A stretch of 30,544 nt of DNA from Minisyncoccota bacterium. GTDB taxonomy: Bacteria > Patescibacteriota > Minisyncoccia > Phycocordibacterales > XYD1-FULL-46-19. The stretch covers positions 1-30,544 of the forward strand of contig JBAZNO010000001.1 of assembly GCA_041649195.1 (NCBI GenBank). Direction: 5' to 3'. A program made the translations under genes and the position numbers. This document shows positions 5,827-29,200 of the stretch, piece by piece. The notes under the pieces are model-generated. The model was not told the origin of the DNA and ran no database searches. It saw nothing but the letters and a program-made list of their open reading frames with translations. The first letter of the stretch is position 1, and each line of letters starts with the position of its first letter.

Positions 5827-8800
5827 TTAGACCACAAAGTTGAGCAATTTATCCTTGATATATATAGCTTTTTTGTACTTTCCTTCAGCTAGCCACTTGG
5901 CCACTAGTGGATTAGTGAGAGCAAGTTTGACAACGCTTTCTTCGCTCTGGCCAGCTGGGAGATTGAGGGTCGCTCGAACCTTACCATTGATTTGAACGAC
6001 AATTTTAACTTCGCTTGAGATTAATTTTTGGGGATCGGCTACGGGCCACGCCGAGAGATGGATTGATTTTGTCTCGCCTAAATTATGCCACAATTCTTCG
6101 GCCACATGGGGCGCTAAGGGGGCAAGTAATTTGAGAAAAATTTTAAAATCTTCGACGGGGATTTGGTCGAGCTTTTCCCAATCATTAGACAAAATCATCA
6201 GGGCCGAAACGGCCGTGTTAAAATTAAAACGATTGATATCGTCGGTCACTTGTTTGATCGTCTTGTGTAAAAGATAATCGCCACCGGTGAGAAGTCGTTT
6301 TTCGTCCTGCGAAATGCGACTTCGCACCGGTGCCACTTTCCCCGCCAAGCGCCAAATCTTCTCCACAAATCTCCGTGACCCCATCAAATTATTGGTACTC
6401 CAAGCCTTAGAGAGTTCGAATGGTCCCATAAACATTTCGTAAAGACGTAAGGTGTCGGCACCATAAAGCCTCACCATATCGTCTGGGTTGATCACATTGC
6501 CCCAGCGCTTGCTCATTTTGCGATTATCCTCGCCCAAAATTAGTCCCTGATTTTTTAATTGGGCAAACGGTTCGGGATAATTAACGACGCCAATATCTTG
6601 CAAAAACTTATGCCAAAAACGGGCGTAGATTAAGTGGCGAGTCGCATGCTCGGTTCCTCCCACATACATATCAACCCCAGTAGCAGAATCTCGCGAGCTC
6701 GATTCGCTACGGGGCAGGCCGGCTCCCAACCAATAATCTAGTTTTTTAATGTCAGCGATAGACTTGCTGTTTTTGGGATCAATAAAGCGTAAAAAGTACC
6801 ATGAAGAGCCGGCCCATTGGGGCATGGTATTAGTTTCGCGCTTGGCGGGCCCTTTGCAGACCGGGCACTTAATATTGACCCAGGTTTTAATGTCAGCCAG
6901 AGGCGATTCCCCTGTGCCGGTGGGGGCATAACTTTTAACTTTAGGTAATTTGACCGGTAAATCTTTTTCGGGTACGGGTACAGCTCGTGGTGAGCCTGCC
7001 GAACCACATTTATCACAATGAATGATCGGGATCGGTTCGCCCCAATAACGTTGACGCGAAAAGACCCAATCGCGCAATTTATATTTTATTATTTGCTGAC
7101 CCCGCGCAAATTTAGTGATCGCTTTTTTGGCTTTTTCATTATCCAGTCCGGTAAATTGCTCGGAATTAATTAGGATTCCTTCTCCAATATAAGGCCCGTC
7201 TACCCCCTTCTTAATTCGCTCTAGCCAAACATCCATTTCGGCATGGACCATGAATTCAGTCGTTAATTCTTCGGGTTTGACCCAGAGAATTTCGTTTTGA
7301 GCCTCCTTTTCTCCTTCGGGAATTTCGCTTTGCTGGTCATCGACGAGGTCAAATTGAACGAGATTGGTAAAAGAAACACGATTAACATTTTTATGATTAG
7401 CAAAATATTCGGCGCGAACTTGTCCGCCAAGAACCTGGCCGTTTTTAAGATTTTGATAACCCGTTTCTTCAAGCACTTCGCGCTTGGCAGCCGTTAACAA
7501 ATCTTCTCCTTCGCTGACCCCACCCATGGGGAAAGTTACCCAATTATATTTATGAGAGTGGAGGCAAAGAATCTTTCCGGTTTTGGGGTTGCGAACAATT
7601 ACTTGAACATTTTTTCGTTCAATTTTTTCTTTACCAGCCACTGGCGGATTTCTCTTATCAATTCGTTCGGGGATAATTACTTCCTTGATCGGTAATTTAA
7701 ATTTCTTGGCAAATTGCCAGTCGCGGTCGTCGTGGGCCGGTACGGCCATAATCGCACCGGTGCCATAATCGGGTAAAACATAATCGGCCACAAAGATTGG
7801 GATCTCCTCTTTATTGGTGGGGTTAATCGCTTTAATCCCCTTCACCTCAACGCCCGTTTTTTCTTTGCCTTCGGCGGTGCGCTCTATTTCACTTCGCTTG
7901 CCAGCCAGAGCGGCGTAATCCTTGATCGCTTTTAAGTTGGTAATATTTTCGGCCAAATCATTAATTAATTTATGCTCTGGCGCTAAGACCAAATAAGTCG
8001 CACCAAATAAAGTGTCGGGGCGAGTAGTAAAAACTTTGACTTGATCGAGACAATGCTCCAAAACGAGGGGTTCGACGGTTCCGCAAAAATGGGATTTTTC
8101 GGCTTTGAGGCGATGGGTTTTGCCACCTAGTGACTGTTGAATAATTTTCGACTCGCCATCGGGGATTAAGCTATCGTTGTCATCTTCGAGAATAACAATC
8201 TCTTTAACATTTTCTTTAATTTTATTAGTATCAAATTTCCAACTCATTAAATATTTAGCCGCTAAACGTTCTTTATCGCGGAATTTTGGCTCAATCAAGC
8301 CGGCCACTAAAATTAATTTATGAATTGGCGTTGATAGTTTTTCTAAAATGCGATAAGACACGACTGAACCGAGCGAGTGACCGACAAGGATGGTGTTAGC
8401 GTCAAATTTTACTTTCGACAAAACATAATCCGCTTGCTCTACCACATCAGGCACATAGGGATGAGGCAAATCGAAGCTAATGACTTCGTGTCCTTGGGCC
8501 TCGAGCTCGCGTTTAAGCCACGGGATAAAGCAACTCTTACTATTACTGCGCCAGCCGTGCAATAAAACATATTTATATTTGGTTTTAAGCGGAAAGGAGA
8601 TCTCGGCGCCCTCACTTTTGCCAATCCAATTGCGTTGGGACTCCTTAATTGATTCAGGCCAATTGAGACCATCAAGATCTTTGAGCAAGCGCTCGGCATA
8701 ATTAGTGATCTTGAGCACCCATTGGCGCATTGGCTTTTTTATCACTTCTGAACCGCATCGTTCGCATTTACCGTCCTCGAGATCTTCGTTGGCGAGACCG

Positions 8801-9375
8801 GTTTGGCAAGACGGGCACCAATTAATTGGCTCCCACGATTCGTAAGCTAGGCCTTTTTTAAAAAGTTGAAGAAAGGCCCATTGCGTCCATTTATAATATT
8901 TGGGGTCGGTGGTATTAATTTCGCGTGACCAATCATAATCAAAACCGATTTTCTCTAATTGCGATTTAAAAACCTTAATATTTTTTTTAACGGCCACTTC
9001 AGGATTAACCTTATTTTTAATGGCATAATTTTCGGCCGGTAAACCAAAGGCGTCCCAACCCATGGGGTGCAAAACATTGAAGCCGTTCATGCGTTTAAAA
9101 CGCGAATAAATATCGGTGGCGGTATAACCCTCAACATGGCCAACATGGAGCCCGTCGCCCGAAGGGTATGGGAACATGTCTAAAATATAGGCCTTGGGCT
9201 TGCCTTTAGAATCGGTAGTTTTATAAGTTTTTTTAGCTCGCCAAACTTTCTGCCACTTAGATTCAATCTTAGCATGATCATACTTGCTTGCTTGCCCATC
9301 CGTAGCTTTGGCGGAGGAGGGCCACTTTTTCTCAATCTTTAAGTGATCGTACTTATCAATTTTTTTAGTCGCCAT
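5827..9375 (-). CDS. leuS: Leucyl-tRNA synthetase with inserted alpha/beta-hydrolase and Nudix domains
   Basis: MFPYPSG.GLHVGH, HPMGWDAFGLPAEN, FTTRPDTLFG, GTGAIMAVPAHD.RD, RDW.FSRQRYWGEPIP, GG.EHA..HL.Y.RF, KMSKRWGN, VVQINGKVR; 1182 aa. Confidence 0.97.
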   Translation of the reverse strand: MATKKIDKYDHLKIEKKWPSSAKATDGQASKYDHAKIESKWQKVWRAKKTYKTTDSKGKPKAYILDMFPYPSGDGLHVGHVEGYTATDIYSRFKRMNGFNVLHPMGWDAFGLPAENYAIKNKVNPEVAVKKNIKVFKSQLEKIGFDYDWSREINTTDPKYYKWTQWAFLQLFKKGLAYESWEPINWCPSCQTGLANEDLEDGKCERCGSEVIKKPMRQWVLKITNYAERLLKDLDGLNWPESIKESQRNWIGKSEGAEISFPLKTKYKYVLLHGWRSNSKSCFIPWLKRELEAQGHEVISFDLPHPYVPDVVEQADYVLSKVKFDANTILVGHSLGSVVSYRILEKLSTPIHKLILVAGLIEPKFRDKERLAAKYLMSWKFDTNKIKENVKEIVILEDDNDSLIPDGESKIIQQSLGGKTHRLKAEKSHFCGTVEPLVLEHCLDQVKVFTTRPDTLFGATYLVLAPEHKLINDLAENITNLKAIKDYAALAGKRSEIERTAEGKEKTGVEVKGIKAINPTNKEEIPIFVADYVLPDYGTGAIMAVPAHDDRDWQFAKKFKLPIKEVIIPERIDKRNPPVAGKEKIERKNVQVIVRNPKTGKILCLHSHKYNWVTFPMGGVSEGEDLLTAAKREVLEETGYQNLKNGQVLGGQVRAEYFANHKNVNRVSFTNLVQFDLVDDQQSEIPEGEKEAQNEILWVKPEELTTEFMVHAEMDVWLERIKKGVDGPYIGEGILINSEQFTGLDNEKAKKAITKFARGQQIIKYKLRDWVFSRQRYWGEPIPIIHCDKCGSAGSPRAVPVPEKDLPVKLPKVKSYAPTGTGESPLADIKTWVNIKCPVCKGPAKRETNTMPQWAGSSWYFLRFIDPKNSKSIADIKKLDYWLGAGLPRSESSSRDSATGVDMYVGGTEHATRHLIYARFWHKFLQDIGVVNYPEPFAQLKNQGLILGEDNRKMSKRWGNVINPDDMVRLYGADTLRLYEMFMGPFELSKAWSTNNLMGSRRFVEKIWRLAGKVAPVRSRISQDEKRLLTGGDYLLHKTIKQVTDDINRFNFNTAVSALMILSNDWEKLDQIPVEDFKIFLKLLAPLAPHVAEELWHNLGETKSIHLSAWPVADPQKLISSEVKIVVQINGKVRATLNLPAGQSEESVVKLALTNPLVAKWLAEGKYKKAIYIKDKLLNFVV
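6282..6332. repeat. 51-bp in-frame palindromic insertion in leuS
   Basis: CACCGGTG-A-GAAGTCG...TTCG-TCCTG-CGAA...CGACTTC-G-CACCGGTG; peptide APVRSRISQDEKRLLTG. Confidence 0.8.
6675..6714. repeat. Palindromic insertion in leuS
   Basis: CCCC-A-GTAGC-A-GAATC...GATTC-GCTAC-GGGG; peptide LPRSESSSRDSATG just before the DMYVGG motif. Confidence 0.7.
6983..7005 (-). repeat. Family A mini-element in leuS
   Basis: Minus strand GGTTCGGCAGGCTCACCACGAGC; peptide GSAGSPRA between C..CG and VPVP. Confidence 0.7.
9290..9322 (-). repeat. Family B mini-element in the leuS N-terminus
   Basis: Minus strand CCCTCCTCCGCCAAAGCTACGGATGGGCAAGC; peptide PSSAKATDGQA; similar to 28441-28471. Confidence 0.75.
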
Positions 9376-9383
9376 TGCGTTTC

Positions 9384-9411
9384 ATCATAACACGAACCAA
9401 AAAGATTTCAA
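9384..9411 (-). promoter_or_regulatory. Near-leaderless leuS promoter
   Basis: TTGAAA, 16 bp, TATGAT with an extended TG, then 8 nt to the ATG; no SD. Confidence 0.55.
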
Positions 9412-9439
9412 TTTGACATCGATGGGTTTGAATTTTATG

Positions 9440-9475
9440 AAAAAGAAAAAGCTGTTTGGGTGCGCAAACAGCTTT
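9440..9475 (-). terminator. Intrinsic terminator downstream of the candidate ncRNA
   Basis: Minus strand AAAGCTGTTTG-CGCACC-CAAACAGCTTT followed by TTCTTTTT. Confidence 0.8.
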
Positions 9476-9482
9476 CCACTGC

Positions 9483-9745
9483 AATACTTGAGCCCAGCCA
9501 GACCCTGGGATCCGGGAATTCGGCCCTGAGTACCTCTTCCGATGCCCATTTGAGGGAACAACTCACACCGTTGCCAAAACCAAGCAGGGCTTGGCTAAAA
9601 GAGACGCCCTCTTCCCGTTGGAGGCCATGACCCACAGCAGAGCTTTGAAGACTTAAAGACTGCCATCATTGGTGGGGAGCATCTTTGCTGGGAGCGCTAA
9701 AACCGAGATTTTCACTCATCCCACTATTGCTTCTTCTCAAGTATC
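9483..9745 (-). ncRNA. Candidate structured ncRNA of unknown family (~263 nt)
   Basis: Perfect 9-bp closing stem ATACTTGAG/CTCAAGTAT, several internal hairpins, ~54% GC (hand count 9481-9720) between AT-rich flanks, terminator immediately 3'. Strand inferred from the terminator. Confidence 0.5.
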
Positions 9746-9815
9746 CTGCTTGATAAAAGCACGAAAAAGTCATTTTGTCTAGGAAAAATGATGTTTTATT
9801 AATTATAACACCTCT

Positions 9816-10490
9816 TTAGTTTTTTTCGATGCCGATGATTTGGCCGTCGTCGATGCGGACGATTTTTTGAGCCATTTTGCCATAAGGTTCTTCGTGGGTC
9901 ACCATGATAATCGTTTGGCCAGCGGCGTGAAGCTCGGTAAAAATTTTCATCACGGCGCGTGAGGATTCGTTATCAAGATTGGCGGTGGGCTCGTCGGCAA
10001 ATAAAATATTTGGCTGGTGGGCAATGGCCCGAGCGATGCTGGCCCGTTGTTGCTCCCCGCCTGAGAGTTGACTCGGCAATTGGTGGAGATGATTAACTAA
10101 ACCCACTTTAGATAAGGATTCGAACGATAATTCGTAAGCCTTACTTTTTTCGACCCCCTGCATCAAGAGGGGTAAAACGACATTTTCGAGAGCGGTTAAT
10201 TCGGGGATTAAAGCGTAATCTTGAAAGACGTAACCTAATTTTTCGAGTCGAAATTTAGTTTTTTCTTCAGCGGTCATCTTGTGGGTGTCGTTACCATCGA
10301 TAATAATTTCGCCGGCGGTTGGTTCGTCAAGCAAGCTCATTTGATACATTAAGGTACTCTTGCCGGCGCCCGAACGACCCATAATGGCAATAAATTCGCC
10401 GGTTTCTACCTTCAAATCAATCCCCTTGAGAACCTTGGTCTCAATGTTGCCGGTGAAGAAGGAGCGTTGTAATTTTTTGGTTTCAATCAT
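9816..10490 (-). CDS. ABC transporter ATP-binding protein, LolD/MacB type
   Basis: GRSGAGKST, LGYVFQ, LSGGEQQR, ILFADEPTANLD, MVTHE. Confidence 0.92.
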   Translation of the reverse strand: MIETKKLQRSFFTGNIETKVLKGIDLKVETGEFIAIMGRSGAGKSTLMYQMSLLDEPTAGEIIIDGNDTHKMTAEEKTKFRLEKLGYVFQDYALIPELTALENVVLPLLMQGVEKSKAYELSFESLSKVGLVNHLHQLPSQLSGGEQQRASIARAIAHQPNILFADEPTANLDNESSRAVMKIFTELHAAGQTIIMVTHEEPYGKMAQKIVRIDDGQIIGIEKN

Positions 10491-10492
10491 AA

Positions 10493-11752
10493 TTAATTGC
10501 GACCCAAGATCGAGTCGAGGGTATTTTTACGAACAATCATGCGGGCCGGCACGTAACCAGCAATTACGGTCGAAATAATTAAGAGAGCAATTCGAAAGAG
10601 GGTTGAGGAGATGGGGGCCACTAAAATGCCGTCACTGAAGGGAAAGTCGATCGGATGAGCGGCAATAAACGGTTGAAGAACGGCGTAAACGAGCAACAGG
10701 CCAATAATTGAGCCGGTAATGGCATAAAAGAAAGATTGCATCACATAGGAGACCTCAATCGCTTCGCCCGAGATGCCAATCCCCTTCAAAATGCCAATAA
10801 ATTTGCGACGGGTGATGGCATTAATGAAGATGACAATAAAAATGGTAATGGCAGCGACCACTAAGCCAATGGAACTAAAGATATCACCCAAAATCGCAAA
10901 AGTTTGGATCATGTCTTTAATAAATTTTGGCTCGGCGTCGGTAAAAGTTTGGACTTTGGCCACTTGGCCAACGCCTTGCACCAAGAGATCATCACGTACC
11001 CTCACCGGGTCATTGCCCGGTTTTAATTTAATGGAAATTTCGTTGACATTATAATCAGTTCGGCCAACGAGATTGCGAAATTGCGAATCCACCATAAAAA
11101 CGCGCATATTAATTTCGTCCAATTTGCTTTTGATAATACCCTTAACGGTTACTTCGCGCTGAACTCCGCCCACATTGATGCGGATTTTTGTTCCCGGTCG
11201 CACGTCGCTACTTAAAGTCGAGAAGCCTGGGCTATCCACTGGCATATAACGCTTGAGGAGATAAGAACCGACAACGACCTGGTCATAATCAAGCGGGGTC
11301 AAAAATGATCCTTCAACAATAAAACGAGAGATGTCGGCCACCTTATCTTCAGCGATGGGGTCAATTCCGGCAAATGAAGCCGAGGCCATGTCAGTTTTGT
11401 CGGTGGTTTTTACTTGCGCCTTATAATTGGCCTCAACCGTTCCCGCTTTTAAATAACGGGCACTAAAACTATCAATGCGCGAATCTTTTTTTAAAATTTC
11501 AATTACGGCCGGACTATTCTCAATATAATTTTTGCTTGTCGGGGTAGAAATAATGACATCACTGATATAGTGAGTCCGAACAGCGTCAACGGCACCCTGA
11601 ATTAGTCCGACCAAGATTCCCGAAACCACAACGAGGTTCAAAAAGGTCAGCACCATCACAAAGGTGATTAAAACATTAGTCCAAATACTTGATCGCCTAA
11701 TCTGCCGTACGGCCAAGAAAAAACCGATCCGATAATTGAGCAAGGAAAACAT
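10493..11752 (-). CDS. ABC transporter permease, MacB/FtsX family
   Basis: One N-terminal TM, a large extracytoplasmic domain, three C-terminal TMs; RRKFIGILKGIG, VPAR motif. Confidence 0.88.
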   Translation of the reverse strand: MFSLLNYRIGFFLAVRQIRRSSIWTNVLITFVMVLTFLNLVVVSGILVGLIQGAVDAVRTHYISDVIISTPTSKNYIENSPAVIEILKKDSRIDSFSARYLKAGTVEANYKAQVKTTDKTDMASASFAGIDPIAEDKVADISRFIVEGSFLTPLDYDQVVVGSYLLKRYMPVDSPGFSTLSSDVRPGTKIRINVGGVQREVTVKGIIKSKLDEINMRVFMVDSQFRNLVGRTDYNVNEISIKLKPGNDPVRVRDDLLVQGVGQVAKVQTFTDAEPKFIKDMIQTFAILGDIFSSIGLVVAAITIFIVIFINAITRRKFIGILKGIGISGEAIEVSYVMQSFFYAITGSIIGLLLVYAVLQPFIAAHPIDFPFSDGILVAPISSTLFRIALLIISTVIAGYVPARMIVRKNTLDSILGRN

Positions 11753-11753
11753 A

Positions 11754-13199
11754 TTATTTACTTTGCTGTTTGAGAACTATTTGATCACCCGGTCTTAGAC
11801 CGGTAAGAACCTCGGTTTGACCAAGAAAGCCGATTTGCCCTGTAGTAATTTCAACTTCGGACGTTTGATTATTGGCGATGAGGCTAACGAATTTTTTGCC
11901 ATTTTTTTCAGTAATGGCACTAGCGGGAATAGAAATAACGCCTGGTTTTTTTAGGGCGGTGACAAGGAGGTTGGCGGTCATCCCTGGTTTGATCCGAGCG
12001 TCAACGGCCGAGAATTGTAATTTAACCTTATAGGTTGAAACGCCGTCGTGAATAGTTTCGGCCGGGTCAATCGAAATTACTTGGGCCGAGAAGGGTACAC
12101 TTGAGCCATAGGCATCGAGCGTCACTTCGGCAGGGTTGCCTACTTTTAAATTGGCAATATTAATTTCGGGCACAAAACTTTCGATTTGAAAAAGCCCCGA
12201 GCTAATCATTGACACACTGGCTTGCCCGGCGATGGCTTGTTCGCCAGTTTTGATATCTAACCGCGTAATTGTCCCGGTGATGGGAGCACGAAGAAAATAA
12301 TCGGCATAATCATGCTCTTTTTGAGCGACCGTTAGCCTTTGAGACTCAATATTGAGAGTAGAATCTTTTAGAGAATTACGACTATCGCTAAGCGTGGCAA
12401 GCATGCTACTAGTGGTTACGCGCCAACTGGCAATATCGCTCTTGTCTGTTTCTAACTCAGTCGATCGGCTACTGCTGTCTGTTTGATTATAAACAAAAGA
12501 AACAAAAGTGTTCACGTCGTTTATCGCCTGGGATAAACTTTGAGCCAAAATATAAGTATCCTCGGTTAATTTAGAGATGGCTATTTTAGAAAAAGGCCTA
12601 GTTAAATTTCGATAATTAGCCAAATTTAGATCATAAGAATCTCTGGCTTTATAAAAACTACTTTGGGCCGTTCTGAAATAATTACGAGCGGTATCGCTCG
12701 TGAGGTTATTTTTGTAGGTTGAGACCTGATAATTGTTAAGGATTAAATCCAATTTCTCAAAAATTGTCGACATATCCAGATAAGCTTTATCCACATTAGA
12801 TAAACTATTCTCGTAATCCTTGGTCAATTCACTTTGGTTGGACGCATTACTATTTTCGAGCATTTTTTTAAGGTCAATCTGGGCGCTTTCTAAAGCGAGC
12901 GAGGCTTCGCGCGAGTCGATCTCGGCAATTAATTGCCCCGCTCCCACTTGTTGACCGACAATAACGGGCACCTGCGCAATTTTACCACTTCGGCTGAAGC
13001 CTAATTCAACACTCGTCGCCGGTATCACTTTACCCGACACGGAGACGGTTTGGGTAAATTCGGCTGGTTGGATAGTTAGGGTTTCGGCCCGATTGCCGTT
13101 TTTATTAGACCAGAAAAAATAGCCCGCAATTAAAACAATTACAATAATGATAGCAATAATTACCCAATAACTTTTGGCTTTAACTAAAAAATTTTTCAT
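11754..13199 (-). CDS. Efflux membrane-fusion (adaptor) protein, MacA/HlyD family
   Basis: N-terminal TM; VSVSGKV.P..SVELGF..SG; LRAPITGTI; IKPGMTA; GL.PGD.IV. Start set at ATG 13199 (the upstream TTG overlaps a -10-like TAAATT). Confidence 0.85.
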   Translation of the reverse strand: MKNFLVKAKSYWVIIAIIIVIVLIAGYFFWSNKNGNRAETLTIQPAEFTQTVSVSGKVIPATSVELGFSRSGKIAQVPVIVGQQVGAGQLIAEIDSREASLALESAQIDLKKMLENSNASNQSELTKDYENSLSNVDKAYLDMSTIFEKLDLILNNYQVSTYKNNLTSDTARNYFRTAQSSFYKARDSYDLNLANYRNLTRPFSKIAISKLTEDTYILAQSLSQAINDVNTFVSFVYNQTDSSSRSTELETDKSDIASWRVTTSSMLATLSDSRNSLKDSTLNIESQRLTVAQKEHDYADYFLRAPITGTITRLDIKTGEQAIAGQASVSMISSGLFQIESFVPEINIANLKVGNPAEVTLDAYGSSVPFSAQVISIDPAETIHDGVSTYKVKLQFSAVDARIKPGMTANLLVTALKKPGVISIPASAITEKNGKKFVSLIANNQTSEVEITTGQIGFLGQTEVLTGLRPGDQIVLKQQSK

Positions 13200-13251
13200 A
13201 AGTTTATACAATTTAGCACATTTAGGGCTCCGAGCTCAAGTTGGTAGATGT

Positions 13252-13280
13252 AAAGAGCCCCGTCCTAATTGGCGGGGCCC
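13252..13280 (-). terminator. Terminator-like hairpin after the small basic ORF
   Basis: Minus strand GGGCCCCGC-CAATTAG-GACGGGGCTC-TTTA; the U-tract is short. Confidence 0.5.
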
Positions 13281-13295
13281 TAAATGAGTTGTCGT

Positions 13296-13448
13296 CTAGC
13301 AGAGTCTTTCGAGCCTCCTCTTGGCCAGAATCCTGCCAGATGGGATAGTGGTGTTTTTGCAGCTAGCCTGCCGAGCCGAGCGGCGGCGGACCTGCCTTAG
13401 TTTTCTGGGGTTTTTCTTAACCCTTTTCCCGAAGCGTTTCGACGACAT
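13296..13448 (-). CDS. Small highly basic protein (50 aa), below the ORF-track cutoff
   Basis: MSSKRFGKRVKKNPRKLRQVRRRSARQASCKNTTIPSGRILAKRRLERLC; SD GAAAGGAGG just upstream; promoter and terminator flank it. Confidence 0.6.
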   Translation of the reverse strand: MSSKRFGKRVKKNPRKLRQVRRRSARQASCKNTTIPSGRILAKRRLERLC

Positions 13449-13492
13449 TGGCTCCTCCTTTCAGGTTCATGGCCTTTGTTTTCTCCTCCCCT

Positions 13493-13521
13493 AAACTATC
13501 ACGAGATCTAGAATATTTCAA
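13493..13521 (-). promoter_or_regulatory. Sigma70-type promoter for the small basic ORF
   Basis: TTGAAA (13521-13516), 17 bp, TAGTTT (13498-13493) with an extended TG. Confidence 0.55.
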
Positions 13522-13524
13522 TCT

Positions 13525-14628
13525 TTAAATTTTGAATTCTACGACATCGCCATCTTGGACGACATATTCTTTACCTTCGGTGCGGACGAGGCCTTTATCG
13601 CGAGCGTTGCCGTAGGAACCGGCCGAGACAAGGTCTTGCCAATTAATCACTTCGGCCTTGATAAATTTGTCATAAAAGTCGGTATGGATGGCCGTGCCGG
13701 CTTCGGGTGCGGTCGAGCCTTTTTTAATTGTCCAAGCGCGGGTTTCATCGGTGCCGGTGGTTAAGAAGGTGATTAGGCCAAGCATCTGGTAACTCTCTTT
13801 AATCAAATCATTGATCCCGTCATCTTCAACACCCAATTCTTTTTTAAATTCGGCCTTGTCCCCAGCCTCTAATTCAGAGAGTTCGCCCTCGATTTTGGCG
13901 TCAACAATCACATAATTAGCATTAAGTTTTTTTAGATATTCAATCACTGGCGCCGTATCAACAATTTTGGCGCCAGCCTTTTTATTTAAAACATATAAAA
14001 TCGGCTTAGCCGAAAGTAGGTGTAAATTTTTAATAACATCCTTAAATACTGGAGTTTGTAAGGATGGTTTATTTGTGTTGTAAAGGGCAGAATAAATTAA
14101 TTGGCCGGCTTGAAGAATTTTTTGTAATTCTAACAAAACTTCATTCTCAACCACGGCCTCCTTATCTCCCCTTTTAACATCGTGAGCTAGATTAGCGATT
14201 CGTTTACTCACCGTTTGCTCGTCGGCTAAGATTAGCTCAAGATTGATTGTCTCGATATCATCAATCGGGTCAATTCTATTTGAGACATGAGTAACGTTGC
14301 CGTCTTCGTAAATTCGCACCACCTCGGCGATAGCATCAACTTCGCGAATATGCGATAAAAATTTATTACCCAAACCTTCTCCCGTCGAAGCGCCCTTAAC
14401 CAAGCCGGCAATATCGACAAATTCGATGGCGGCAGGGATCTTTTTCGCTGATTTAGAAAAATTATTTAAAATCTCCACACGTTCATCCGGCACAGCGACA
14501 ATCCCGACCGATGGATCAATCGTGCAAAACGGATAATTCTCGGCCGGCACACCCTTTTGCGTGAGCGCGTTAAAAAGCGTCGATTTCCCGACGTTTGGTA
14601 AGCCTACGATGCCAATACTTAAACCCAT
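13525..14628 (-). CDS. ychF: Redox-regulated ATPase YchF
   Basis: [66 protein letters not shown]. Confidence 0.97.
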
Positions 14629-14664
14629 AAAAGAGAGTTTAACCTAAAAACAACAAAAAAGGAA

Positions 14665-20053: not shown

Positions 20054-20072
20054 TAACGCTTGCCAATATAAC

Positions 20073-20103
20073 AAAAAAGGCCCTGTTTGAAAAGGCCTTT
20101 TTT
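20073..20103. terminator. Terminator hairpin after the surface protein gene
   Basis: AAAAAAGGCC...GGCCTTTTTT, with T-runs on both strands. Confidence 0.7.
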
Positions 20104-20118
20104 GTGACTAATTAGTTT

Positions 20119-21603: not shown

Positions 21604-21726
21604 AAATAAAAATAGAGCTGATAATATGCCTAATTACTGGCAAAATAACGCAGTTGGAGCCAAAATCAAAGCCTAGTAATCTGTGGATAATTCTGCTAAG
21701 ATTAGGAGTGGAAGGAGGGTATCTGA

Positions 21727-22266
21727 ATGAAGTCAAAATTCAGCCCCAGACAGAGAAAGTTCCTAAGAACTTGGTTTATTAACTGGATGGCCATCAATGC
21801 TGGTGGTCTCGTTCGGTTAGCGATTGGCGCGCCGATTGAATGGTTCCTCGGTTTCCCCGCCTTAGGGATAGCGAGCTTCAGACTCTTTAGCTGGCTAATC
21901 CTCGATTCGACCTTGGCCTTGCCGGCAGCCCTGATTAGAGAGGGGGTTTATGACCTAAAATTCGTTGACAAGGAAAGTTCTTGGCAATGGATAATCATCG
22001 ACACCACCATCTTAACGGCTTACAAGGGATTGTCCTATGCCTTGTGCCTATTGCCGGTGTGGTTGTGGATGGGGTTGCCGGGAACAACGTTTTTGGGCCT
22101 ACTGACCGTCAATCTTGGCCTTTTTCTCACGACAGGAGCCGTCAACTACTATTACGTTGACGTCCTCGACAAGAACTGGCTAGATTTGACTGAAAGACTC
22201 TTAGGCTGGACAAAAGAATCTAAGAGAAAAATGGTCAAAAAAATGCCCCGAAAAAAAAGAGAGTAA
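21727..22266 (+). CDS. AlaE-like (L-alanine exporter family) membrane protein
   Basis: The pattern IE.FL.G...RL...A.P...R...S.W...D...Y...G...N...GAV..Y..D matches, by eye, E. coli AlaE/YgaW as recalled; SD AAGGAGG. Confidence 0.55.
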   Translation: MKSKFSPRQRKFLRTWFINWMAINAGGLVRLAIGAPIEWFLGFPALGIASFRLFSWLILDSTLALPAALIREGVYDLKFVDKESSWQWIIIDTTILTAYKGLSYALCLLPVWLWMGLPGTTFLGLLTVNLGLFLTTGAVNYYYVDVLDKNWLDLTERLLGWTKESKRKMVKKMPRKKRE

Positions 22267-22280
22267 TTTATCTTTCCCTC

Positions 22281-22308
22281 CCCCGATGACGGCTTGCCGT
22301 CATCGGGG
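22281..22308. terminator. Hairpin between the convergent AlaE-like gene and ddl
   Basis: Perfect 12-bp stem CCCCGATGACGG-CTTG-CCGTCATCGGGG. Confidence 0.75.
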
Positions 22309-22327
22309 ATTGTCATTTTTAATAATT

Positions 22328-23329
22328 TTATTTTTTATTTAACGCCAGGGTGATCACGTGATCAAGAAATTGGTCGTAAGGGATACCGGCGGCTCGCAAA
22401 GATTTAGGGATTAGCGACTCTTCAGTCATCCCGGGCAAAGTATTAACCTCGAGCGCATAAATCCCCCGTGGTGAAATGATAAAATCTGACCGTGAGTAAT
22501 GACGCAGGCCAAGCACCTTATGAATTTCGGCGGCCAGCCGCTCTAATTCGGCCTTTTCTTCTTTAGTAAAACGCCCGGGACAAATTTCGGACGTAATGCC
22601 GGTATATTTGGCCTCATAATCAAAAAGGTTTTTGTCGGACGGAGTGACGATCTCGATCGGCAACAACGAGTAATGATTTTTCCCGCGCATGCCATCAACC
22701 ACGCCACAGGTGGCCTCTTTGCCCTTAATATATTCTTCAACTAAAACGGCATCGCTAAAATTAAAACAGCTCTCAACGGCCTGCACGAGTTCGGGAAAAG
22801 TTTTTGCTAAATAAAGGCCAACCGACGAACCGCTCCCGGCCGGCTTAACAATCCAAGGGGGAGAAATTTGACGAAAAACATCATGAGCAATGGCCTCAGC
22901 GTCAGCTTGTCCTGAGTCTTGTCGAAGGGTTTGATAATCTCTTTTGACCACCACTCCGTTCGGCACCTTAATCCCCGCTTTTTTAAAAACCTCTTTGGCC
23001 CGTGGCTTGTCCATCCCGAGCGCCGAGGCTACCATCCCCGAGCCAGTATAGGGCACCGCGAGATAATCTAGCAGTTGTTGCACTTGTCCATCCTCGCCAA
23101 ATTCGCCATGCAAAGCATTAAAAATGACGTCAACGCTCCGAACCGCTCGTTCGGGTGACATCGGCGCGCCATTAACATGCCAGGTGCCATCACGCGACAA
23201 AAGCATATCCACTGGTTGATATTTATCACTCGGCAGATTTTTGATTACACTGGCGCCAGTTTTAAGCGACACTTCATATTCGTGCCCAATTCCACCACGT
23301 AAAATACCGACTTTAATTAATGACGACAT
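22328..23329 (-). CDS. ddl: D-alanine--D-alanine ligase
   Basis: GG...E.EVSL.TG, FNALHGEFGEDG, PYTGSG, MDK, VKP..SGSSVG, FDYEAKY, SRSDF, LEVNTLPGMT..S. Confidence 0.95.
   Translation of the reverse strand: MSSLIKVGILRGGIGHEYEVSLKTGASVIKNLPSDKYQPVDMLLSRDGTWHVNGAPMSPERAVRSVDVIFNALHGEFGEDGQVQQLLDYLAVPYTGSGMVASALGMDKPRAKEVFKKAGIKVPNGVVVKRDYQTLRQDSGQADAEAIAHDVFRQISPPWIVKPAGSGSSVGLYLAKTFPELVQAVESCFNFSDAVLVEEYIKGKEATCGVVDGMRGKNHYSLLPIEIVTPSDKNLFDYEAKYTGITSEICPGRFTKEEKAELERLAAEIHKVLGLRHYSRSDFIISPRGIYALEVNTLPGMTEESLIPKSLRAAGIPYDQFLDHVITLALNKK
22905..22929 (-). repeat. Family A mini-element in ddl
   Basis: Minus strand CCCTTCGACAAGACTCAGGACAAGC; peptide TLRQDSGQA. Confidence 0.75.
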
Positions 23330-23351
23330 CTACTTTTTACTTGCGACTAAA

Positions 23352-23723
23352 TTATTTGAGAATCTCTTTAATTTTGAGGACGACATCATCCAGGGTAAAG
23401 TTGGCCTTAACGAGAAAGTCGATCGCTCCAAGAGCGTGTGCCTTTTCAATATCTTCTTTTTGGCCAAGATTAGAGAAAACGATCACCGGGATATCTTTAG
23501 TCTTGGGATCCTCCTTAATTTTTTTCAAAACCTCAAAACCGTCAACTCCGGGCAAGAGCAGATCCAAGAAAATTAAATTTGGCATTTCTTTAGGAATGAG
23601 ATCAATCGCATTTTGCCCATCAACCGCTACTGCCACCTTAAAACCTTCGGTCTCTAACCTTTTCGCATTAAGCGAGCGTAAAAATTCATCGTCCTCAACA
23701 ATCAACACTTTTTTTGGTTCCAT
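23352..23723 (-). CDS. Single-domain response regulator (receiver)
   Basis: VLIVEDD, LIFLDLLLP (phospho-Asp), VFSN, FLVKA. Confidence 0.92.
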   Translation of the reverse strand: MEPKKVLIVEDDEFLRSLNAKRLETEGFKVAVAVDGQNAIDLIPKEMPNLIFLDLLLPGVDGFEVLKKIKEDPKTKDIPVIVFSNLGQKEDIEKAHALGAIDFLVKANFTLDDVVLKIKEILK

Positions 23724-23761
23724 ATGGTTATCCTTATTTAAATTATTAATTATTTACCCTA

Positions 23762-23812
23762 TTGAGTAAAAATTATTTCATAATTTTATGATGCTAAAGC
23801 ATCATTACTCAA
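23762..23812. other. Perfect branched (three-way junction) palindrome
   Basis: TTGAGTA | AAAATTAT-TTC-ATAATTTT | ATGATGCT-AA-AGCATCAT | TACTCAA. Confidence 0.75.
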
Positions 23813-23821
23813 CTGGGTGAA

Positions 23822-24805
23822 TTATACTTTTTTCTGGTGTAAAGGTAAAGTGAACGAAAAGGCTGTTCCCTGCCCAGGGTGATTTTCGAACCAAATCGCT
23901 CCACCATGCTTCTCAATAATGTCTCGAGCAATAAAAAGGCCTAGGCCCGAGCCGTCTGGCTCCGCTTTAATGGCATTAGAGGCGCGAAAGAACTTCTGAA
24001 ACATTTTGTCGGCTTCGCCAGCCGGGATCCCGATACCCGAGTCGGTTACCGTAATCTCTATCGCCCCCTCGGCGCTATTGAGACGTTCGTCAGAGATTTT
24101 GATTTCCACCTTGCCTCCTTCGGGTGTGTATTTAATGGCGTTATCAACCAGATTTTCGAGCACCATCCGGATTTTGTCGGCATCTAATTCAATCTGCGGG
24201 ACAGTCGTTTGGGGTCGAAGAAAAAGAAAATTAATTTTTTTGATCGTGGCCTGATTAGTAAATTCAAAAATAATATTGGAGACCAAATTAATCAAATCGG
24301 TTGGACGAAAAGTATAATCAGCTCGATCGGTATCAATCGAATCAACTTTAAGCAAATCGTTAACGATCGAGATTACCCGTTCGGTGCTAGTTAGGCCTTG
24401 GAATAGAAACTTTTTTTGCTCCTCATTTACTGTTCCCAATTGACCTTTAGCAGCCATGTCTAGTGTCCACTTAACGGCGGCCAGCGGAGTGCGTAATTGA
24501 TGAGTGGTCACCGAGACAAATTTTGACTTGGCCTCCTCCAAGGTTTGGAGTTTTTTGTTGGCCAAGGTTAAACCAAGCTCTTTAGAATAAAGTTCGCGAT
24601 TTTTTGCGGCAAGTTCGTTATTAACTTTTTGTAATTCTTGAATCTGTTGAGTTTTGAGATTGGCCTCATTAATTAAAATCTGCAAACGACTTTCGCGACT
24701 TTGCCAAAAACGGCCAAGGTAAAAAACAGCGACAAAAAACAATAGCAACAATACCCAAAAGCCCGGGTAATTAATAAAAGAAAAATCTAGGTAGGCGTCT
24801 AACAC
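23822..24805 (-). CDS. Sensor histidine kinase (TM, coiled coil, HisKA, HATPase)
   Basis: THQLRTPL, LENLVDNAIKYT, DSGIGI, F.KFFR, GSGLGL. Start proposed at GTG 24805, 6 nt after TATAAT. Confidence 0.9.
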   Translation of the reverse strand: MLDAYLDFSFINYPGFWVLLLLFFVAVFYLGRFWQSRESRLQILINEANLKTQQIQELQKVNNELAAKNRELYSKELGLTLANKKLQTLEEAKSKFVSVTTHQLRTPLAAVKWTLDMAAKGQLGTVNEEQKKFLFQGLTSTERVISIVNDLLKVDSIDTDRADYTFRPTDLINLVSNIIFEFTNQATIKKINFLFLRPQTTVPQIELDADKIRMVLENLVDNAIKYTPEGGKVEIKISDERLNSAEGAIEITVTDSGIGIPAGEADKMFQKFFRASNAIKAEPDGSGLGLFIARDIIEKHGGAIWFENHPGQGTAFSFTLPLHQKKV

Positions 24806-24812
24806 CCATTCA

Positions 24813-26135
24813 TTATACCAATCGTCCGCGCAATTTTCTATGGTAAGAGAGTGCAAAACGATGGGCCTCGGCATTGGCCTCAATTATCGCCTGACGATAA
24901 TCCCGAATAATGGCCGAACTTTCTAATTGTCGAGGCAAGCCAATTAATCTTGAAGCCTTATGCTTATCATCTTTAGCCACCCCAATTACAACACATGCCC
25001 CCAAATCCCAAGGGTAATCCTTGGACAAATTTTGGACGACGTTGAGTTGGATTTGGTTGCCATCAACCACAATAATATCGGGCATTGGCCACTCAGGGTG
25101 ATTAAAACGTCGCTCGAGAATTTCGCGCAGATTTTCGGGATCATTGATTCCCACTTCTGCGTTATTTCTGCGTTTCGTCTGCGTCCGTCCGCGTAATTTA
25201 AATTTCTTGTATTCACTTCTCTGCATTTCACCATCTTGCCACACCGTCATTGCCCCAGTCGTGTTTTTACCCGATAAGTGGGCAATGTCGTAGGCTTCAA
25301 TTCTAATTTGAGCCCGAGGTGAGTCCTTAAGTGAGCCCAAGGTCTCTCCTCGGGCACCTTTTGCCTTCAACAACGACACATCCCGAATATGATTTAACGC
25401 AAAAATTTGATCGCGAATTTTTCCCGCTTTTTCAAATTCTTTTTTCTTGGCCAAAACCTTCATCCCGCGTTCAAGATTTTTTATCACTTCTTTTTTCTTC
25501 CCCTCAAAAAATAATTTAATATTCCGCACAATCTTGCGATAATCAGTTTTTGAAATCTCACCAGTACAAACTCCCGGACAAAGGCCAATTTGTTTGTTAA
25601 AACAAGGCTTGCCAGAATTTGGCAGACATTTATCTCTATACGGAAAAATTTTGCGGATAATCTTCAACGCCTCTTTCATCTCTGCCCCATAGGGAAATGG
25701 CCCAAATTGGTCTTTTATCCCCAGTTTTGTATGGTCTATCGAAGTCGAACTTCGATAATTTTTACTCTCTAATTCCCGGCCACGGATTGGGAGAATGCGC
25801 GGAAAGTCTTCGTCAGTGATAATCACATACCAATAACTCTTATCATCCTTCTCGCGAGTGTTATAAGGTGGTTGATGTTTCTTAATTAATTCGGTCTCCA
25901 ACAACAAGGCCTCCAAAACTGAATCCGTTTCCTGCCACTCAATTTTATTTGCTAAAGCAAGCATTTGGGTAATTTTAGGACCCCGAGTCTCCCCTAAATC
26001 TCCAACAAAATAACTCTTCACTCGATCTTTAAGCGAAGTTGCTTTGCCTATGTATAAGATATCTCGCCCACGTTTAAAAAAATACACCCCAGGCGAGTCG
26101 GGCAAATTATGGCATTTTAAGTCTTGACTAAGCAT
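24813..26135 (-). CDS. uvrC: Excinuclease UvrC, short form with no HhH tail recognised
   Basis: LPDSPGVY, LYIGKATSLKDRVKSYF, EALLLE..LIK...P.YN, FGPF, RIEAYDIAH.SG, PDIIVVDG, EAHRFA. Confidence 0.93.
   Translation of the reverse strand: MLSQDLKCHNLPDSPGVYFFKRGRDILYIGKATSLKDRVKSYFVGDLGETRGPKITQMLALANKIEWQETDSVLEALLLETELIKKHQPPYNTREKDDKSYWYVIITDEDFPRILPIRGRELESKNYRSSTSIDHTKLGIKDQFGPFPYGAEMKEALKIIRKIFPYRDKCLPNSGKPCFNKQIGLCPGVCTGEISKTDYRKIVRNIKLFFEGKKKEVIKNLERGMKVLAKKKEFEKAGKIRDQIFALNHIRDVSLLKAKGARGETLGSLKDSPRAQIRIEAYDIAHLSGKNTTGAMTVWQDGEMQRSEYKKFKLRGRTQTKRRNNAEVGINDPENLREILERRFNHPEWPMPDIIVVDGNQIQLNVVQNLSKDYPWDLGACVVIGVAKDDKHKASRLIGLPRQLESSAIIRDYRQAIIEANAEAHRFALSYHRKLRGRLV
25156..25194. repeat. 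Four ~11-bp-period TC(T/C)GCGT units in uvrC
   Basis: Units at 25156, 25167, 25178 and 25188; peptide RGRTQTKRRNNAE. Confidence 0.65.
25312..25355. repeat. Palindromic insertion in uvrC
   Basis: GCCCGAGG-T-GAG-T-CCTT...AAGG-T-CTC-T-CCTCGGGC; peptide ARGETLGSLKDSPRA. Confidence 0.75.
25714..25757. repeat. Partial third copy of the 923/1303 repeat plus a 21-bp hairpin inside uvrC
   Basis: TTTATCCCCAGTTTTGTAT (18/19 identical to 923-941), then GGTC and TATCGAAGT-CGA-ACTTCGATA. Confidence 0.75.
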
Positions 26136-26207
26136 GGTTTATATAATATAACAAATACGGAGAAGTACAAATTTTTTGTAGTAATAACCGGAAAGGAAGG
26201 AAGCACT

Positions 26208-26396
26208 ATGCCAAAGGGAGAGTACGTCAGAACGAGGCCCCCGGCGGGGAGAAAGCAATTCGGACGATTTAGCCTCCGGCCCAAGGGGGTGACCCGGGAA
26301 GATAAAAGAATTGAAGATGCCTTGGCCTCAATGCCGAGTAGCGTTCCCAAGCACCGGAATCCCAGTTTTAGGGCCTCCAAGCCCAAATTAAAATAG
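26208..26396 (+). CDS. Small basic hypothetical protein (62 aa)
   Basis: SD-like GAAAGGAAGG upstream of ATG 26208; hairpin CCCCTCT-TGTG-AGAGGGG downstream. Confidence 0.5.
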   Translation: MPKGEYVRTRPPAGRKQFGRFSLRPKGVTREDKRIEDALASMPSSVPKHRNPSFRASKPKLK

Positions 26397-26429
26397 AGCC
26401 TACCGGCACCCCCTCTTGTGAGAGGGGCC

Positions 26430-26465
26430 AACCACGCAGAGATCTGACTTCAGCTCCGCGTGGTT
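26430..26465. terminator. Hairpin at the uvrA stop (possibly bidirectional)
   Basis: AACCACGC-A-GAG...CTC-C-GCGTGGTT followed by TATTTTTTT. Confidence 0.5.
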
Positions 26466-29200
26466 TATTTTTTTCTTAACGCTCTCTTTAAATATTTGGC
26501 GGTATAAGAACCAAGCCTCTCTGCCGACGGAGCCGGCGCATAAGCCACTTCTTCGGGTGTACCCTTAGCCACTAAATTGCCCCCACCCAAGCCCCCTTCA
26601 GGACCAAGATCAATTACATAATCAGCGCATTTAATTACCTCCATATTGTGTTCAATCACCACCACCGTATTCCCCTTCTCGACTAATTTTTGCAAAATGT
26701 CGTTTAAGTTTTTAACATCTTCATAATGCAAACCAATCGTCGGTTCATCAAGAATATAGATGGTACGCTCAGTGTAGGGACGATAAAGTTCAGACGAAAT
26801 TTTAACGCGTTGGGCCTCACCACCAGAAAGATCGGTGGCTGATTGTCCCAACTCTAAATACCCGAGCCCAACTTCATTAAGCGTTTTTAATCTGTCATGA
26901 ATTGCTGGGATATCGTTAAAAAATTCTAATGCTTCCTCCACTGTCATATGCAAGATCTGGCTAATATTTTTCTTTTTGTATTGTACTTCGAGCGTATCTT
27001 TTTCATAACGTGTGCCCATACACACATCGCAAGGCACATAAATGGTTGGTAAAAAGTGCATCTCCACCGCTACTTCGCCATTACCCTGACAAGCCTCACA
27101 GCGTCCTCCTTGCACATTGAAGGAGAAGCGCGACGCCTTCCACCCCCTTGCTCGCGCGAGCGCCGTTTCGGCCAATAATTCGCGAATAAAGGTAAAGGCA
27201 CCGGTATAAGTGGCCGGATTTGAGCGTGGAGTGCGACCAATGGGCGATTGATCGATCATCACCACCCGACTTAGATATTCGGAACCAGAAAATTCCCTAC
27301 AATTAAATAATTCATTAGTGCGATAACGACGCTCTAGTCGAGCCTGCAAGTTTTTATGCAGGATTTCGTAAACCAACGACGATTTGCCTGAACCAGAGAC
27401 ACCGGTAATCGCCACTAATTTGCCGAGGGGGATATCAACATTTATGTTTTTGATATTAAAGACATTACCGCCGCGAATTTTGATGGTGCCCTTATCCTTG
27501 CTGCGTCGTTTTTCGGGCACCGGGATTTCGATATCGCCTCTTAAATAATCAACGGTAAGAGAATTATAATCATTCTTTTTAGAAGTTAAGAGTCTATCAG
27601 TTTCGCCCGCTACCACAATATGACCACCATGCACACCAGCACCCGGACCAATGTCGACAAGGTAATCAGACGCAAAAATCGTGTCTTCGTCATGCTCCAC
27701 CACCACAATTGAGTTACCTAGATCGCGAAGTTCGAGCAGGGTCTTAATTAATTTATCATTATCGCGCGCATGGAGGCCAATTGTTGGCTCATCAAGCACG
27801 TAAAGAGTACCAACGAGGCGTGAGCCAAGTTGTGAGGCCAAGCGAATACGTTGGGCTTCGCCACCCGACAAAGTGTCGGCTCGACGGCTAAGTTCAATAT
27901 AATCAAGGCCAACATCGTTTAAGAACTTCAGCCGTGCCCCAATTTCTTTAAACAAGACTTCAGAAATGGCTTTTTCTTTGGGGGTTAACTTAATTGTATC
28001 GAAAAGTTTTTTGGCCTCGCCGATCGAGAGATTAACTGTCTCAACGATATTAAGGCCCGCTTGGCCTGAGCCTGTCGAATGGCCAATTCTCACCTGCAAA
28101 GCCTCTGGTCGCAGACGCGCACCATTACAAACTTCGCAAAGCTCATTGCCCCACATATGTTTAGTGCCTAAGCCGTGACACTCTGGGCAAGCACCATAAG
28201 GCGAATTAAAAGAGAAGAGTCGTGGCTCGATTTCAGGGAAGGAGAAGCCGTCGTTGGGGCAGGCAAATTTTGACGATAAAAGGAAAGTATTCTCTTGCCC
28301 TGAGTTTGTCGAAGGGCCGGCCAAAACAATCTTGACCAAGCCCTCCGATTCTTTAAGCGCCCGCTCAACCCCCTCGGTTAGGCGTTCGTTGGCCGAGTCG
28401 GACTTAGCTGAAGCAACAATTGTCGCCAAAGACGATCCTTGCTTGCCCGTCGAAGCCTTGGCAGAGTCGGGAGAAATTTTTAAAGGGGAGTCCTTGGCGA
28501 CCTTTTGATTGAAATCAGCTAAGTTTATCTCATCAATCACCACATCAATATCATGCTTTTTGGTTTTGGTTAGGATAATCCTTTCACGTAATTTGTATTT
28601 TTTGCCATCAATCAAAACTTCGGAGTAACCCTTATCGATCAAATCATAAAGCAATTGATAGTACTCGCCCTTTCGACCCCGAACCACTGGGGCAAGAAGG
28701 GTTACGTTGGCAACGGCGCGAGATCCCATTTCGCTACGCGAAAAACGATCTCTCTCCGTCGCCCCCATTTTTTCTTTAATAAAATTCACAATCTCTTCAT
28801 GCGATAATTTCTCAATCCGCTCGCCACAAATCGGACAATGGGGTTGGCCAATGCGAGCATAAAGCACCCGCAAATAATCGTAAATTTCGGTAATCGTGGC
28901 CACGGTCGAGCGCGGATTGTGCGAACGAGATTTTTGATCAATCGAAATAGCTGGCGAGAGACCCGAGATCTCGTCAACATCTGGCTTAGGTAATTGTTTT
29001 AAAAATTGTCGAGCATAAGCCGACAGTGACTCCACATAACGACGTTGGCCTTCAGCAAAAATGGTATCGAAAGCAAGCGAAGATTTGCCTGAACCCGAGA
29101 GACCAGTAAAAACCACCAGCTTATTGCGCGGTATCTCCAAATTAATATTTTTAAGGTTGTGCGTTCGCGCCCCCTTAATTTTTATTTTATGTTCCTCCAT
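26465..29200 (-). CDS. uvrA: Excinuclease UvrA, insertion domain apparently missing
   Basis: [40 protein letters not shown], two LSGGEAQR signatures, LDEPTIGLH twice, CEAC.G/CDVC.G zinc finger. Start set at ATG 29200. Confidence 0.96.
28059..28082 (-). repeat. Family A mini-element in uvrA
   Basis: Minus strand CCATTCGACAGGCTCAGGCCAAGC; peptide HSTGSGQA. Confidence 0.75.
28294..28316 (-). repeat. Family A mini-element in uvrA
   Basis: Minus strand CCCTTCGACAAACTCAGGGCAAG; peptide PSTNSGQE. Confidence 0.75.
28441..28471 (-). repeat. Family B mini-element in uvrA
   Basis: Minus strand CCCGACTCTGCCAAGGCTTCGACGGGCAAGC; peptide [11 protein letters not shown]. Confidence 0.75.
28710..28762. repeat. 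Palindromic insertion in uvrA
   Basis: GCAACGG..GAGATC..TTTCGC-TAC-GCGAAA..GATCTC..CCGTCGC; peptide [18 protein letters not shown]. Confidence 0.75.

Follow-up and report, generated by a model that had tools for sequence, protein, structure and literature searches.

We analysed a 30,544-nucleotide stretch of DNA from a Minisyncoccota bacterium (contig JBAZNO010000001.1 of assembly GCA_041649195.1, positions 1 to 30,544; hereafter the window) in which a short palindromic repeat, which we call family A, interrupts the genes leuS, ddl and uvrA. We favor, with a probability of roughly 0.6, the reading that family A is a palindromic mobile element of very small size, possibly with a function. It is one of a set of hairpin repeats, spread across phyla, that have a constant loop, copy-specific stems and lineage-specific tails. 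Units of 18–24 nt are present in some genomes of the genus and absent from others at otherwise conserved sites of uvrA, ddl, leuS, dnaK, alaS and dus, and no transposase was found with them.

The genome that contains the window (G000) comprises 590,501 bp in 86 contigs, has 43.7% G+C and is judged to be 90% complete; the genomes of its relatives are 0.4–0.9 Mb in size, in keeping with an ultra-small bacterium of the Patescibacteria type. Three congeners (G002, G004 and G006) were fetched nearly whole, and each copy was compared with the orthologous site; UvrA was aligned across eight genomes of the genus, with 84–93% amino-acid identity. A family A unit consists of two to four variable bases (typically three), a 13-nt core, TTCGACAAGCTCA, the complementary bases and a short tail, giving a total of ~23–24 nt. 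We found 12 exact cores and eight one-mismatch cores in G000, compared to none for the reversed 13-mer that served as a control. Only 0.018 exact cores are expected, and the copy number is thus far above chance. With two edits allowed, ~25 copies in G000 look real, a density of ~1 per 24 kb. In the genus, copies are single units and mostly intragenic. About two thirds of the G000 copies are inside genes, and the host genes include uvrA (twice), leuS, ddl, ssb, alaS, thrS, an ileS/valS-type synthetase gene, an RNB exoribonuclease gene, dus and glyA. The coding copies have the form (C)CC-core-GG(N)-CAAGC or GG-core-CC-ACGAGC. The second form, TAG-core-CTA-TAAA, is intergenic and is found 14–31 nt upstream of the start codons of rpsS, rpsI, rpsH, secF, cca and a glycosyltransferase gene, always in the same direction as the downstream gene; in some cases, its TAG doubles as the stop codon of the gene upstream. 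The CAAGC-like tail that was initially attributed to the family is real; coding copies have CAAGC or CGAGC, and intergenic copies have TAAA. Two kinds of match were set aside as chance: cores reading AATCTCA, which showed no indel relative to their orthologues, and an rpoC-like LDKLK codon run in G002.

Copies are recent gains, acquired singly and without target duplication, in both coding and intergenic DNA of close relatives. Filled and empty sites were observed for uvrA (copies 1 and 2), ddl, leuS, alaS, dus, the secD-secF spacer, dnaK of G002, a second leuS site of G006, and others. The leuS copy in the window is an 18-nt in-frame insertion that is unique to G000, being absent from the leuS genes of the three congeners; its left arm, GTGG, is host sequence found in all four genomes. 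The ddl copy, present in G000 and G006 and absent from G002 and G004, is an insertion of exactly 24 nt, and no target duplication accompanies it. Copy 1 of uvrA is a 24-nt insertion found only in G000 among the eight genomes of the genus. Copy 2 is a 24-nt in-frame insert in G000; its site is also filled in G006 (18 nt) and in a further congener, G007 (12 nt, decayed), and is empty in the five other congeners. Similarly, a 24-nt dnaK copy with the arms ACC/GGT and no target duplication is present in G002 alone, two separate sites in leuS of G006 hold other copies, and the secD-secF spacer gained a 23-nt TAG/CTA unit only in G000. Net insertion lengths were 15–24 nt (15, 17, 18, 21, 23 and 24), or 39 nt for a double copy. 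The coding copies are multiples of 3 nt and are read through in frame within conserved protein genes. In solved structures of UvrA and Ddl, the insertion sites align to variable-length loops or gaps, with a gap at the site of the ddl copy. The left flanks of ~10 filled/empty pairs had no motif in common, and no target tetra- or pentanucleotide.

We next consider the stem. Covariation was measured in 82 unfiltered units from the genus and six other genomes of the candidate phyla radiation (CPR). Across the four pairs tested, 71.0% of cells were standard pairs, compared to 47.9 ± 2.0% after shuffling (0 of 500 shuffles), and the covariation score was 0.567, compared to 0.222 for shuffled units and at most 0.237 when the partners were slid. 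The covariation resides in the three inner pairs, which occur as CG, GC, UA and AU; the fourth position is not truly paired. Conservation of the 13-nt loop is 90% or more. In the four genus genomes, none of 2000 shuffles attained the observed pairing. Compensatory changes were also observed at three orthologous copies: GCC/GGC versus CCC/GGG in alaS; CCC/GGG versus TCC/GGA in a class I synthetase gene resembling ileS/valS; and, in the spacer before cca, TAG/CTA (G000), TAG/CCA (G004) and TGG/CCA (G006), a path via an A.C intermediate. The switch between CCT/AGG and GGT/ACC arms, originally noted from the window alone, is therefore real and is part of a much wider covariation that exceeds both the shuffled and the slid controls. 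Predicted folding energies range from 0 (the value for TAG/CTA units) to -7 kcal/mol, too low a stability for the pairing to reflect a free-standing hairpin. Counts of G.U and A.C mismatches showed no clear asymmetry that would identify the folding strand. The initial interpretation, selection on nucleic-acid structure, is partly supported by this covariation; the pairing may be under selection as RNA or as single-stranded DNA, or may only serve mobilisation.

The core is also found outside the genus. It is present in all eight genus genomes and is patchy elsewhere in the order, with no copies in many related genomes. The exact 13-mer was found in 95 of 301 sampled genomes of the phylum (CPR), with up to 31 copies, compared to ~10 in total for the reversed control. 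A 15-mer scan of species genomes gave at least 120 loci, in a collection where ~1100 chance matches are expected for a 15-mer. The matches listed include Proteobacteria, Bacteroidota, Chloroflexota, Actinomycetota, Cyanobacteria, Planctomycetota, Nitrospirota, Acidobacteriota and CPR. Among these listed matches, both next flanking pairs were Watson-Crick in 128 of 155 units, compared to 9.7 expected, and pairs 2 and 3 were Watson-Crick in 87% of units, with several pair types. Flanks were paired in 81 of 133 units from viral contigs. Outside the CPR, the units are mostly inverted intergenic doublets with CGAACGG or TGACA tails, and five non-CPR genomes have 54–204 copies each; cultured bacteria rich in copies include a sphingomonad, Mucilaginibacter and Thalassotalea. 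Tandem arrays of parts of the unit, with periods of 14 nt and 54 nt and up to ~25 repeats, were seen in a Dehalococcoidia metagenome-assembled genome (MAG; L052), at G045:C2:613951-614467 and in Microbacterium mangrovi (L035); the unit is prone to slippage in other phyla. In a Staskawiczbacteria MAG (L053:339-430), the 3' end of a tRNA gene is followed 3 nt later by a unit whose left arm consists of the last bases of the tRNA.

Insertions of this kind could in principle arise without an enzyme, by template switching or microhomology-mediated templated insertion, with a stalled nascent strand copying a unit elsewhere and then returning. Stem pairing would then be kept mechanically, by intrastrand (quasi-palindrome) correction, rather than by selection. 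Such a process fits the variable net lengths around a constant core, the lack of both target duplication and an associated transposase, and the tandem expansions in other phyla. It also fits leuS and uvrA copy 2, in which the host sequence already had the left arm and the insertion brought a complementary right arm. By contrast, the insertions in ddl, dnaK and the secD-secF spacer carry both arms, and a fold-back model in which the arms always derive from the host flank, which holds for leuS and uvrA copy 2, was rejected on these three cases. Moreover, arms of 3 bases are very short for template-switch correction, and neither the sameness of this one loop across phyla nor its bias to the sense strand would be explained. 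We regard an enzyme-free origin as quite improbable.

Orientation relative to genes is strongly biased. In the four genus genomes, coding copies were 22 sense to 4 antisense; the statement that all copies are sense is thus correct for the window and too strong for the genus. Of the 22 sense copies, 17 are in the frame that reads PSTSSGQA, a hydrophilic peptide (P = 3e-5). In the six other CPR genomes, coding copies were 15:2 sense and the preferred frame was different (LRQAQGK, FDKLR); the TAAAC tail of these genomes puts a stop codon in the STSSG frame. The pooled ratio of 37:6 is greater than the 3:2 expected from open frames (P = 2e-4). The initial annotation, made where all host genes are on the minus strand, had called for a check of orientation in plus-strand genes and at intergenic sites. 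Copies follow the gene throughout the intergenic TAG/CTA class and in four cases where the gene opposes the local GC skew (three intragenic copies and one in the spacer before cca). These four cases weakly favor transcription or translation over replication direction as the source of the sense bias, and are too few to settle the matter.

Shared copies also change slowly. Orthologous copies differed at 25 of 211 positions (12%), compared to 20% in 60-nt, mostly coding flanks (P = 0.001) and 53% at 4-fold sites, a comparison that is subject to ascertainment bias since decayed copies escape recognition, and that includes one locus that may have been exchanged between lineages. The 53% is the fraction of 4-fold sites in uvrA that differ between G000 and G006; inside shared coding copies, 7 of 28 such sites differ (P = 0.002, from alignments read by eye). 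For the ddl copy, G000 and G006 have 1 difference in 25 nt, and the flanks have 39 in 120. We conclude that shared copies are either constrained or refreshed.

The orientation bias and the slow divergence bring up a second alternative, in which family A is chiefly a functional signal on the sense transcript. The short stem would present the 13-nt loop to a widely conserved RNA-binding or RNA-processing factor, with effects on mRNA stability, on processing between operon genes or on termination, and copies would spread and then be kept through use. The first five bases of the loop, UUCGA, match the T-loop pattern, and two unrelated CPR genomes each have a real terminator hairpin whose loop is the core, in G000 a 14-bp hairpin on contig C16. 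Also in its favor are the excess of sense copies, the TAG/CTA copies that all point toward a gene 14–31 nt downstream, the copies that follow their gene against the local skew, conservation well below the neutral rate even at 4-fold sites, pairing maintained via an A.C intermediate, and the identical loop in many phyla. By contrast, most sites are lineage-specific gains rather than conserved positions, the inverted doublets outside the CPR imply that both orientations are transcribed, mismatch counts show no preference for G.U on the sense strand, and the distribution is patchy, with no copies in many related genomes. At the Rfam gathering threshold, the window and 18 element-bearing loci gave only tRNAs and one signal recognition particle RNA, with no match to family A. 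The best duplexes with 16S and 23S rRNA were no better than those of shuffled cores, so there is no significant complementarity; the single apparent hit is itself a family A copy beyond the 16S gene of G004. That copy, antisense at ~34685-34697 of contig C1, follows the 16S 5' end by ~1.7 kb, which puts it at the 3' end of the rRNA gene or slightly beyond it. Overall, we consider it rather unlikely that family A is chiefly a transcript signal.

The initial annotation had compared the conserved foot of family A to the guide tetranucleotides of REP and IS200-type elements. REP sequences have a conserved, imperfect stem of 6–13 bp and a short or variable loop, and the cognate RAYT gene is flanked by inverted copies of the repeat. 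In IS200/IS605 and IS608-type elements, a hairpin is recognised and insertion is strand-specific, without target duplication; this requires a Y1 transposase and a target tetranucleotide that pairs with an internal guide. Family A resembles the latter in its hairpin, its strand specificity and its lack of target duplication; neither a guide target nor a link to Y1 genes was seen in family A. Like REP/REPIN-RAYT systems (Bertels and Rainey, 2011, PMC3116915; Di Nocera et al., 2013, PMC3733652), family A consists of short palindromic repeats in dozens to hundreds of copies and has a conserved unpaired tail beside the hairpin. Outside the CPR it forms inverted intergenic doublets, the REPIN form; in the genus the copies are single units, mostly within genes. 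Unlike REP, it conserves the 13-nt loop and varies the 3-bp stem, which is the reverse of the REP pattern; it does not flank a RAYT gene, its core spans many phyla, and its copies in G000 are mostly intragenic. Occasional intragenic REPs are known, notably in uvrA and other repair genes, and REPs of the CGTC type also occur without a dedicated transposase (PMC3733652). REP is defined by a GTAG or CGTC 5' tag beside the hairpin (PMC3733652); family A has neither tag, its tails being CAAGC, CGAGC and TAAA here and CGAACGG and TGACA elsewhere.

A third alternative would make family A a REP proper, moved by a RAYT-like Y1 transposase of G000, with the tail as an IS200/IS605-type guide. Y1_Tnp genes are present in all eight genus genomes, with three RAYT-like genes in G000, and the unit is a hairpin with a conserved foot that inserts without target duplication. 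However, each G000 Y1 gene (C36:843-1557, C20 on the minus strand, and C70:548-1231) is flanked by a hairpin repeat of its own (ACGAGGACGGTCCTCGT, CCAAGGATTACCCTTGG and TGTGCGAGATTGGATATCGCACA), none of which carries the family A core. The presence of Y1_Tnp genes and that of the motif are uncoupled among 41 relatives. Three of five copy-rich genomes of other phyla have no Y1_Tnp gene, and no core was found within ~1.5 kb of the eight Y1 genes of the two other copy-rich genomes. The empty sites have no conserved flanking tetranucleotide, and thus no fixed target 5' of the insertions. We therefore rejected family A both as a RAYT-associated REP and as a product of IS200/IS605-type guided insertion; the guide-like role of the foot is not upheld, and movement by a resident Y1 enzyme is highly improbable. 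As a separate observation, this 0.59-Mb genome has at least three classical REP/RAYT pairs besides family A.

Other known classes of repeat were compared with family A. Rickettsia palindromic elements (RPE; see the summary in PMC3733652) are ~100–150 nt long and lineage-specific, and are found in frame in housekeeping genes, to which they add tolerated surface peptide segments. Family A is likewise palindromic and in frame in the housekeeping genes of a reduced genome; unlike RPE, it adds just 6–8 codons, and its core also occurs in free-living bacteria from other phyla. The SDRs of Nostoc, as reportedly described by Elhai in 2008, are mobile-like elements of 21–27 nt, inserted in conserved coding and non-coding sequence, with no known transposase. 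They are like family A in behaviour only; their sequence is different, and they are found in one lineage. DNA uptake sequences (USS/DUS) arise by point substitution, in both orientations, at ~1 per kb. We rejected this identity for family A, which arises by insertion, is sense-biased in genes and occurs at ~1 per 24 kb. The intergenic form CTCACTATA is similar to a T7-type promoter, a likeness that we judged to be coincidence since coding and cross-phylum copies lack that part. A Sigma-70 promoter was rejected on spacing, TTCGACA and TATAAA being just 7 nt apart, and a pseudoknot between tail and loop was rejected on inspection, its pairing not being conserved among tail variants. We found no description of family A in the literature; searches with the core, its complement and six-frame peptide strings matched only unrelated primers, and a search on REP elements in the CPR gave nothing on it. 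Among published kinds, intragenic REPs, REPINs, RPE and the SDRs come closest.

Several observations weigh against a mobile element. No mobilising enzyme has been identified, and we know of no transposition intermediate. A 3-base A/T stem with a 13-nt loop folds at a predicted ~0 kcal/mol, and so would form no unaided hairpin. The identity of the loop across phyla is not explained by any lineage-specific transposase, the sense bias goes beyond what stop codons alone explain, and the low divergence of shared copies is not expected of pure selfish DNA after insertion. Some intergenic copies have the same length as the unrelated sequence in sister genomes, which resembles replacement more than insertion.

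We nonetheless prefer the mobile reading and can outline how such an element might behave. New copies would be made from existing units, which would explain the sub-families CCC/GGG with CAAGC, TGG/CCA with CAAGC and TAG/CTA with TAAA. The copying factor may act in trans and recognise the loop on its short stem, and would not be a flanking Y1 transposase. Net inserts of 15–24 nt, together with the two host-derived left arms, suggest microhomology or template-switching joints. Selection would then purge copies that break proteins, with protein-level selection filtering orientation and frame only in part. Since old copies change more slowly than neutral sequence and retain their pairing, the hairpin either has gained a cellular role or continues to serve in re-mobilisation or conversion.

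The four copies reported initially are all present in the window, each on the minus strand and in the sense orientation of its host gene, leuS, ddl or uvrA (Table 1). The core pattern proposed for them, TCG.CA..CTC, has four matches in the window, compared to 0.52 expected, and holds with two corrections: one match (27687-27697, plus strand) is due to chance and has no arms, and the core of the ddl copy is one base longer than the shared core. The cores are at 6991-7003 (leuS), 22913-22926 (ddl), 28067-28079 (uvrA copy 2) and 28301-28313 (uvrA copy 1).

Table 1. Host genes, family A copies and similar fragments in the window.
Feature	Position	Strand	Composition	Length or peptide
leuS, host gene	5827..9375	-		1182 aa
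Family A copy in leuS	6983..7005	-	GG, core TTCGGCAGGCTCA, CC, tail ACGAGC	GSAGSPRA
Similar tail-bearing fragment in leuS N-terminal extension	9290..9306	-	GCTACGGAT-GGGCAAGC	KATDGQAS
ddl, host gene	22328..23329	-		333 aa
Family A copy in ddl	22905..22929	-	CCC, core TTCGACAAGACTCA (one extra A), GG, tail ACAAGC	TLRQDSGQA
uvrA, host gene	26465..29317	-		950 aa as called
Family A copy 2 in uvrA	28059..28084	-	TTGGCC(a), core TTCGACAGGCTCA, GGCCAA, GC	HSTGSGQA
Family A copy 1 in uvrA	28292..28317	-	GCCC, core TTCGACAAACTCA, GGGC, AAGAG	PSTNSGQE
Putative truncated relative in uvrA	28441..28456	-	GC-TTCGAC joined directly to GGGCAAGC	ASTGKQ

The truncated uvrA fragment in Table 1 is a putative member of family A, placed there by its TTCGAC and GGGCAAGC. 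It falls in a stretch that is missing from the uvrA gene of G006, and is probably what the initial annotation had called family B. Near the C-terminus of uvrA (~26507-26527, minus strand), a 21-nt in-frame insertion reading APSAERL is present only in G000 among the seven UvrA sequences that cover the site; it contains TCGGCAGAGAGGCT and could be either a degenerate family A relative or some other mini-element. The uvrA open reading frame (ORF) as called begins ~40 codons before the point where the alignment of all congeners starts (at its 5' end, given as the region of window positions 26465-26580), and the N-terminal extension holds ARTGSPR-like, repeat-derived sequence. The annotated start is probably too far upstream, and the true start is probably near residue 40. 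In two public sequencing runs from groundwater and landfill (X1 and X2), a unitig with 100% identity stops exactly at 28292, the edge of uvrA copy 1, and one public contig joins 28315 to 28059, thereby joining both uvrA copies. The break and the joint could reflect a population polymorphism, recombination between the copies, or an artefact of the graph or the aligner. In LeuS, Pfam places a serine-hydrolase/alpha-beta-hydrolase domain (residues ~269-424) just before the editing domain and a NUDIX domain (residues ~587-715) just after it, the latter being a second passenger domain besides the hydrolase.

The constant loop, the lineage-specific tail, the variable yet pairing stem and the lack of an attached transposase point to an unknown mobilising or binding factor, a pattern that is hard to fit to known REP/RAYT biology. 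A more speculative and unlikely proposal is that TTCGACAAGCTCA on a freely varying 3-bp stem is a signal for a factor common to most bacteria, acting on the sense strand or the transcript, such that copies, among them those within uvrA, ddl and the aminoacyl-tRNA synthetase genes of CPR bacteria, are selected at the nucleic-acid level and not merely tolerated. If true, family A would be a cis-element of nearly universal occurrence, one that spreads as mobile elements do and has been overlooked for its shortness. The spurious ORFs and peptide inserts that the units create (STSSGQA, LRQAQ.., FDKLR..) confuse annotation and alignments in many phyla. For the bacterium itself, a mobile-looking unit of six to eight codons, among the smallest seen, is remodelling essential proteins in a minimal genome, and the clean filled and empty alleles among sister genomes could reveal how such units move.

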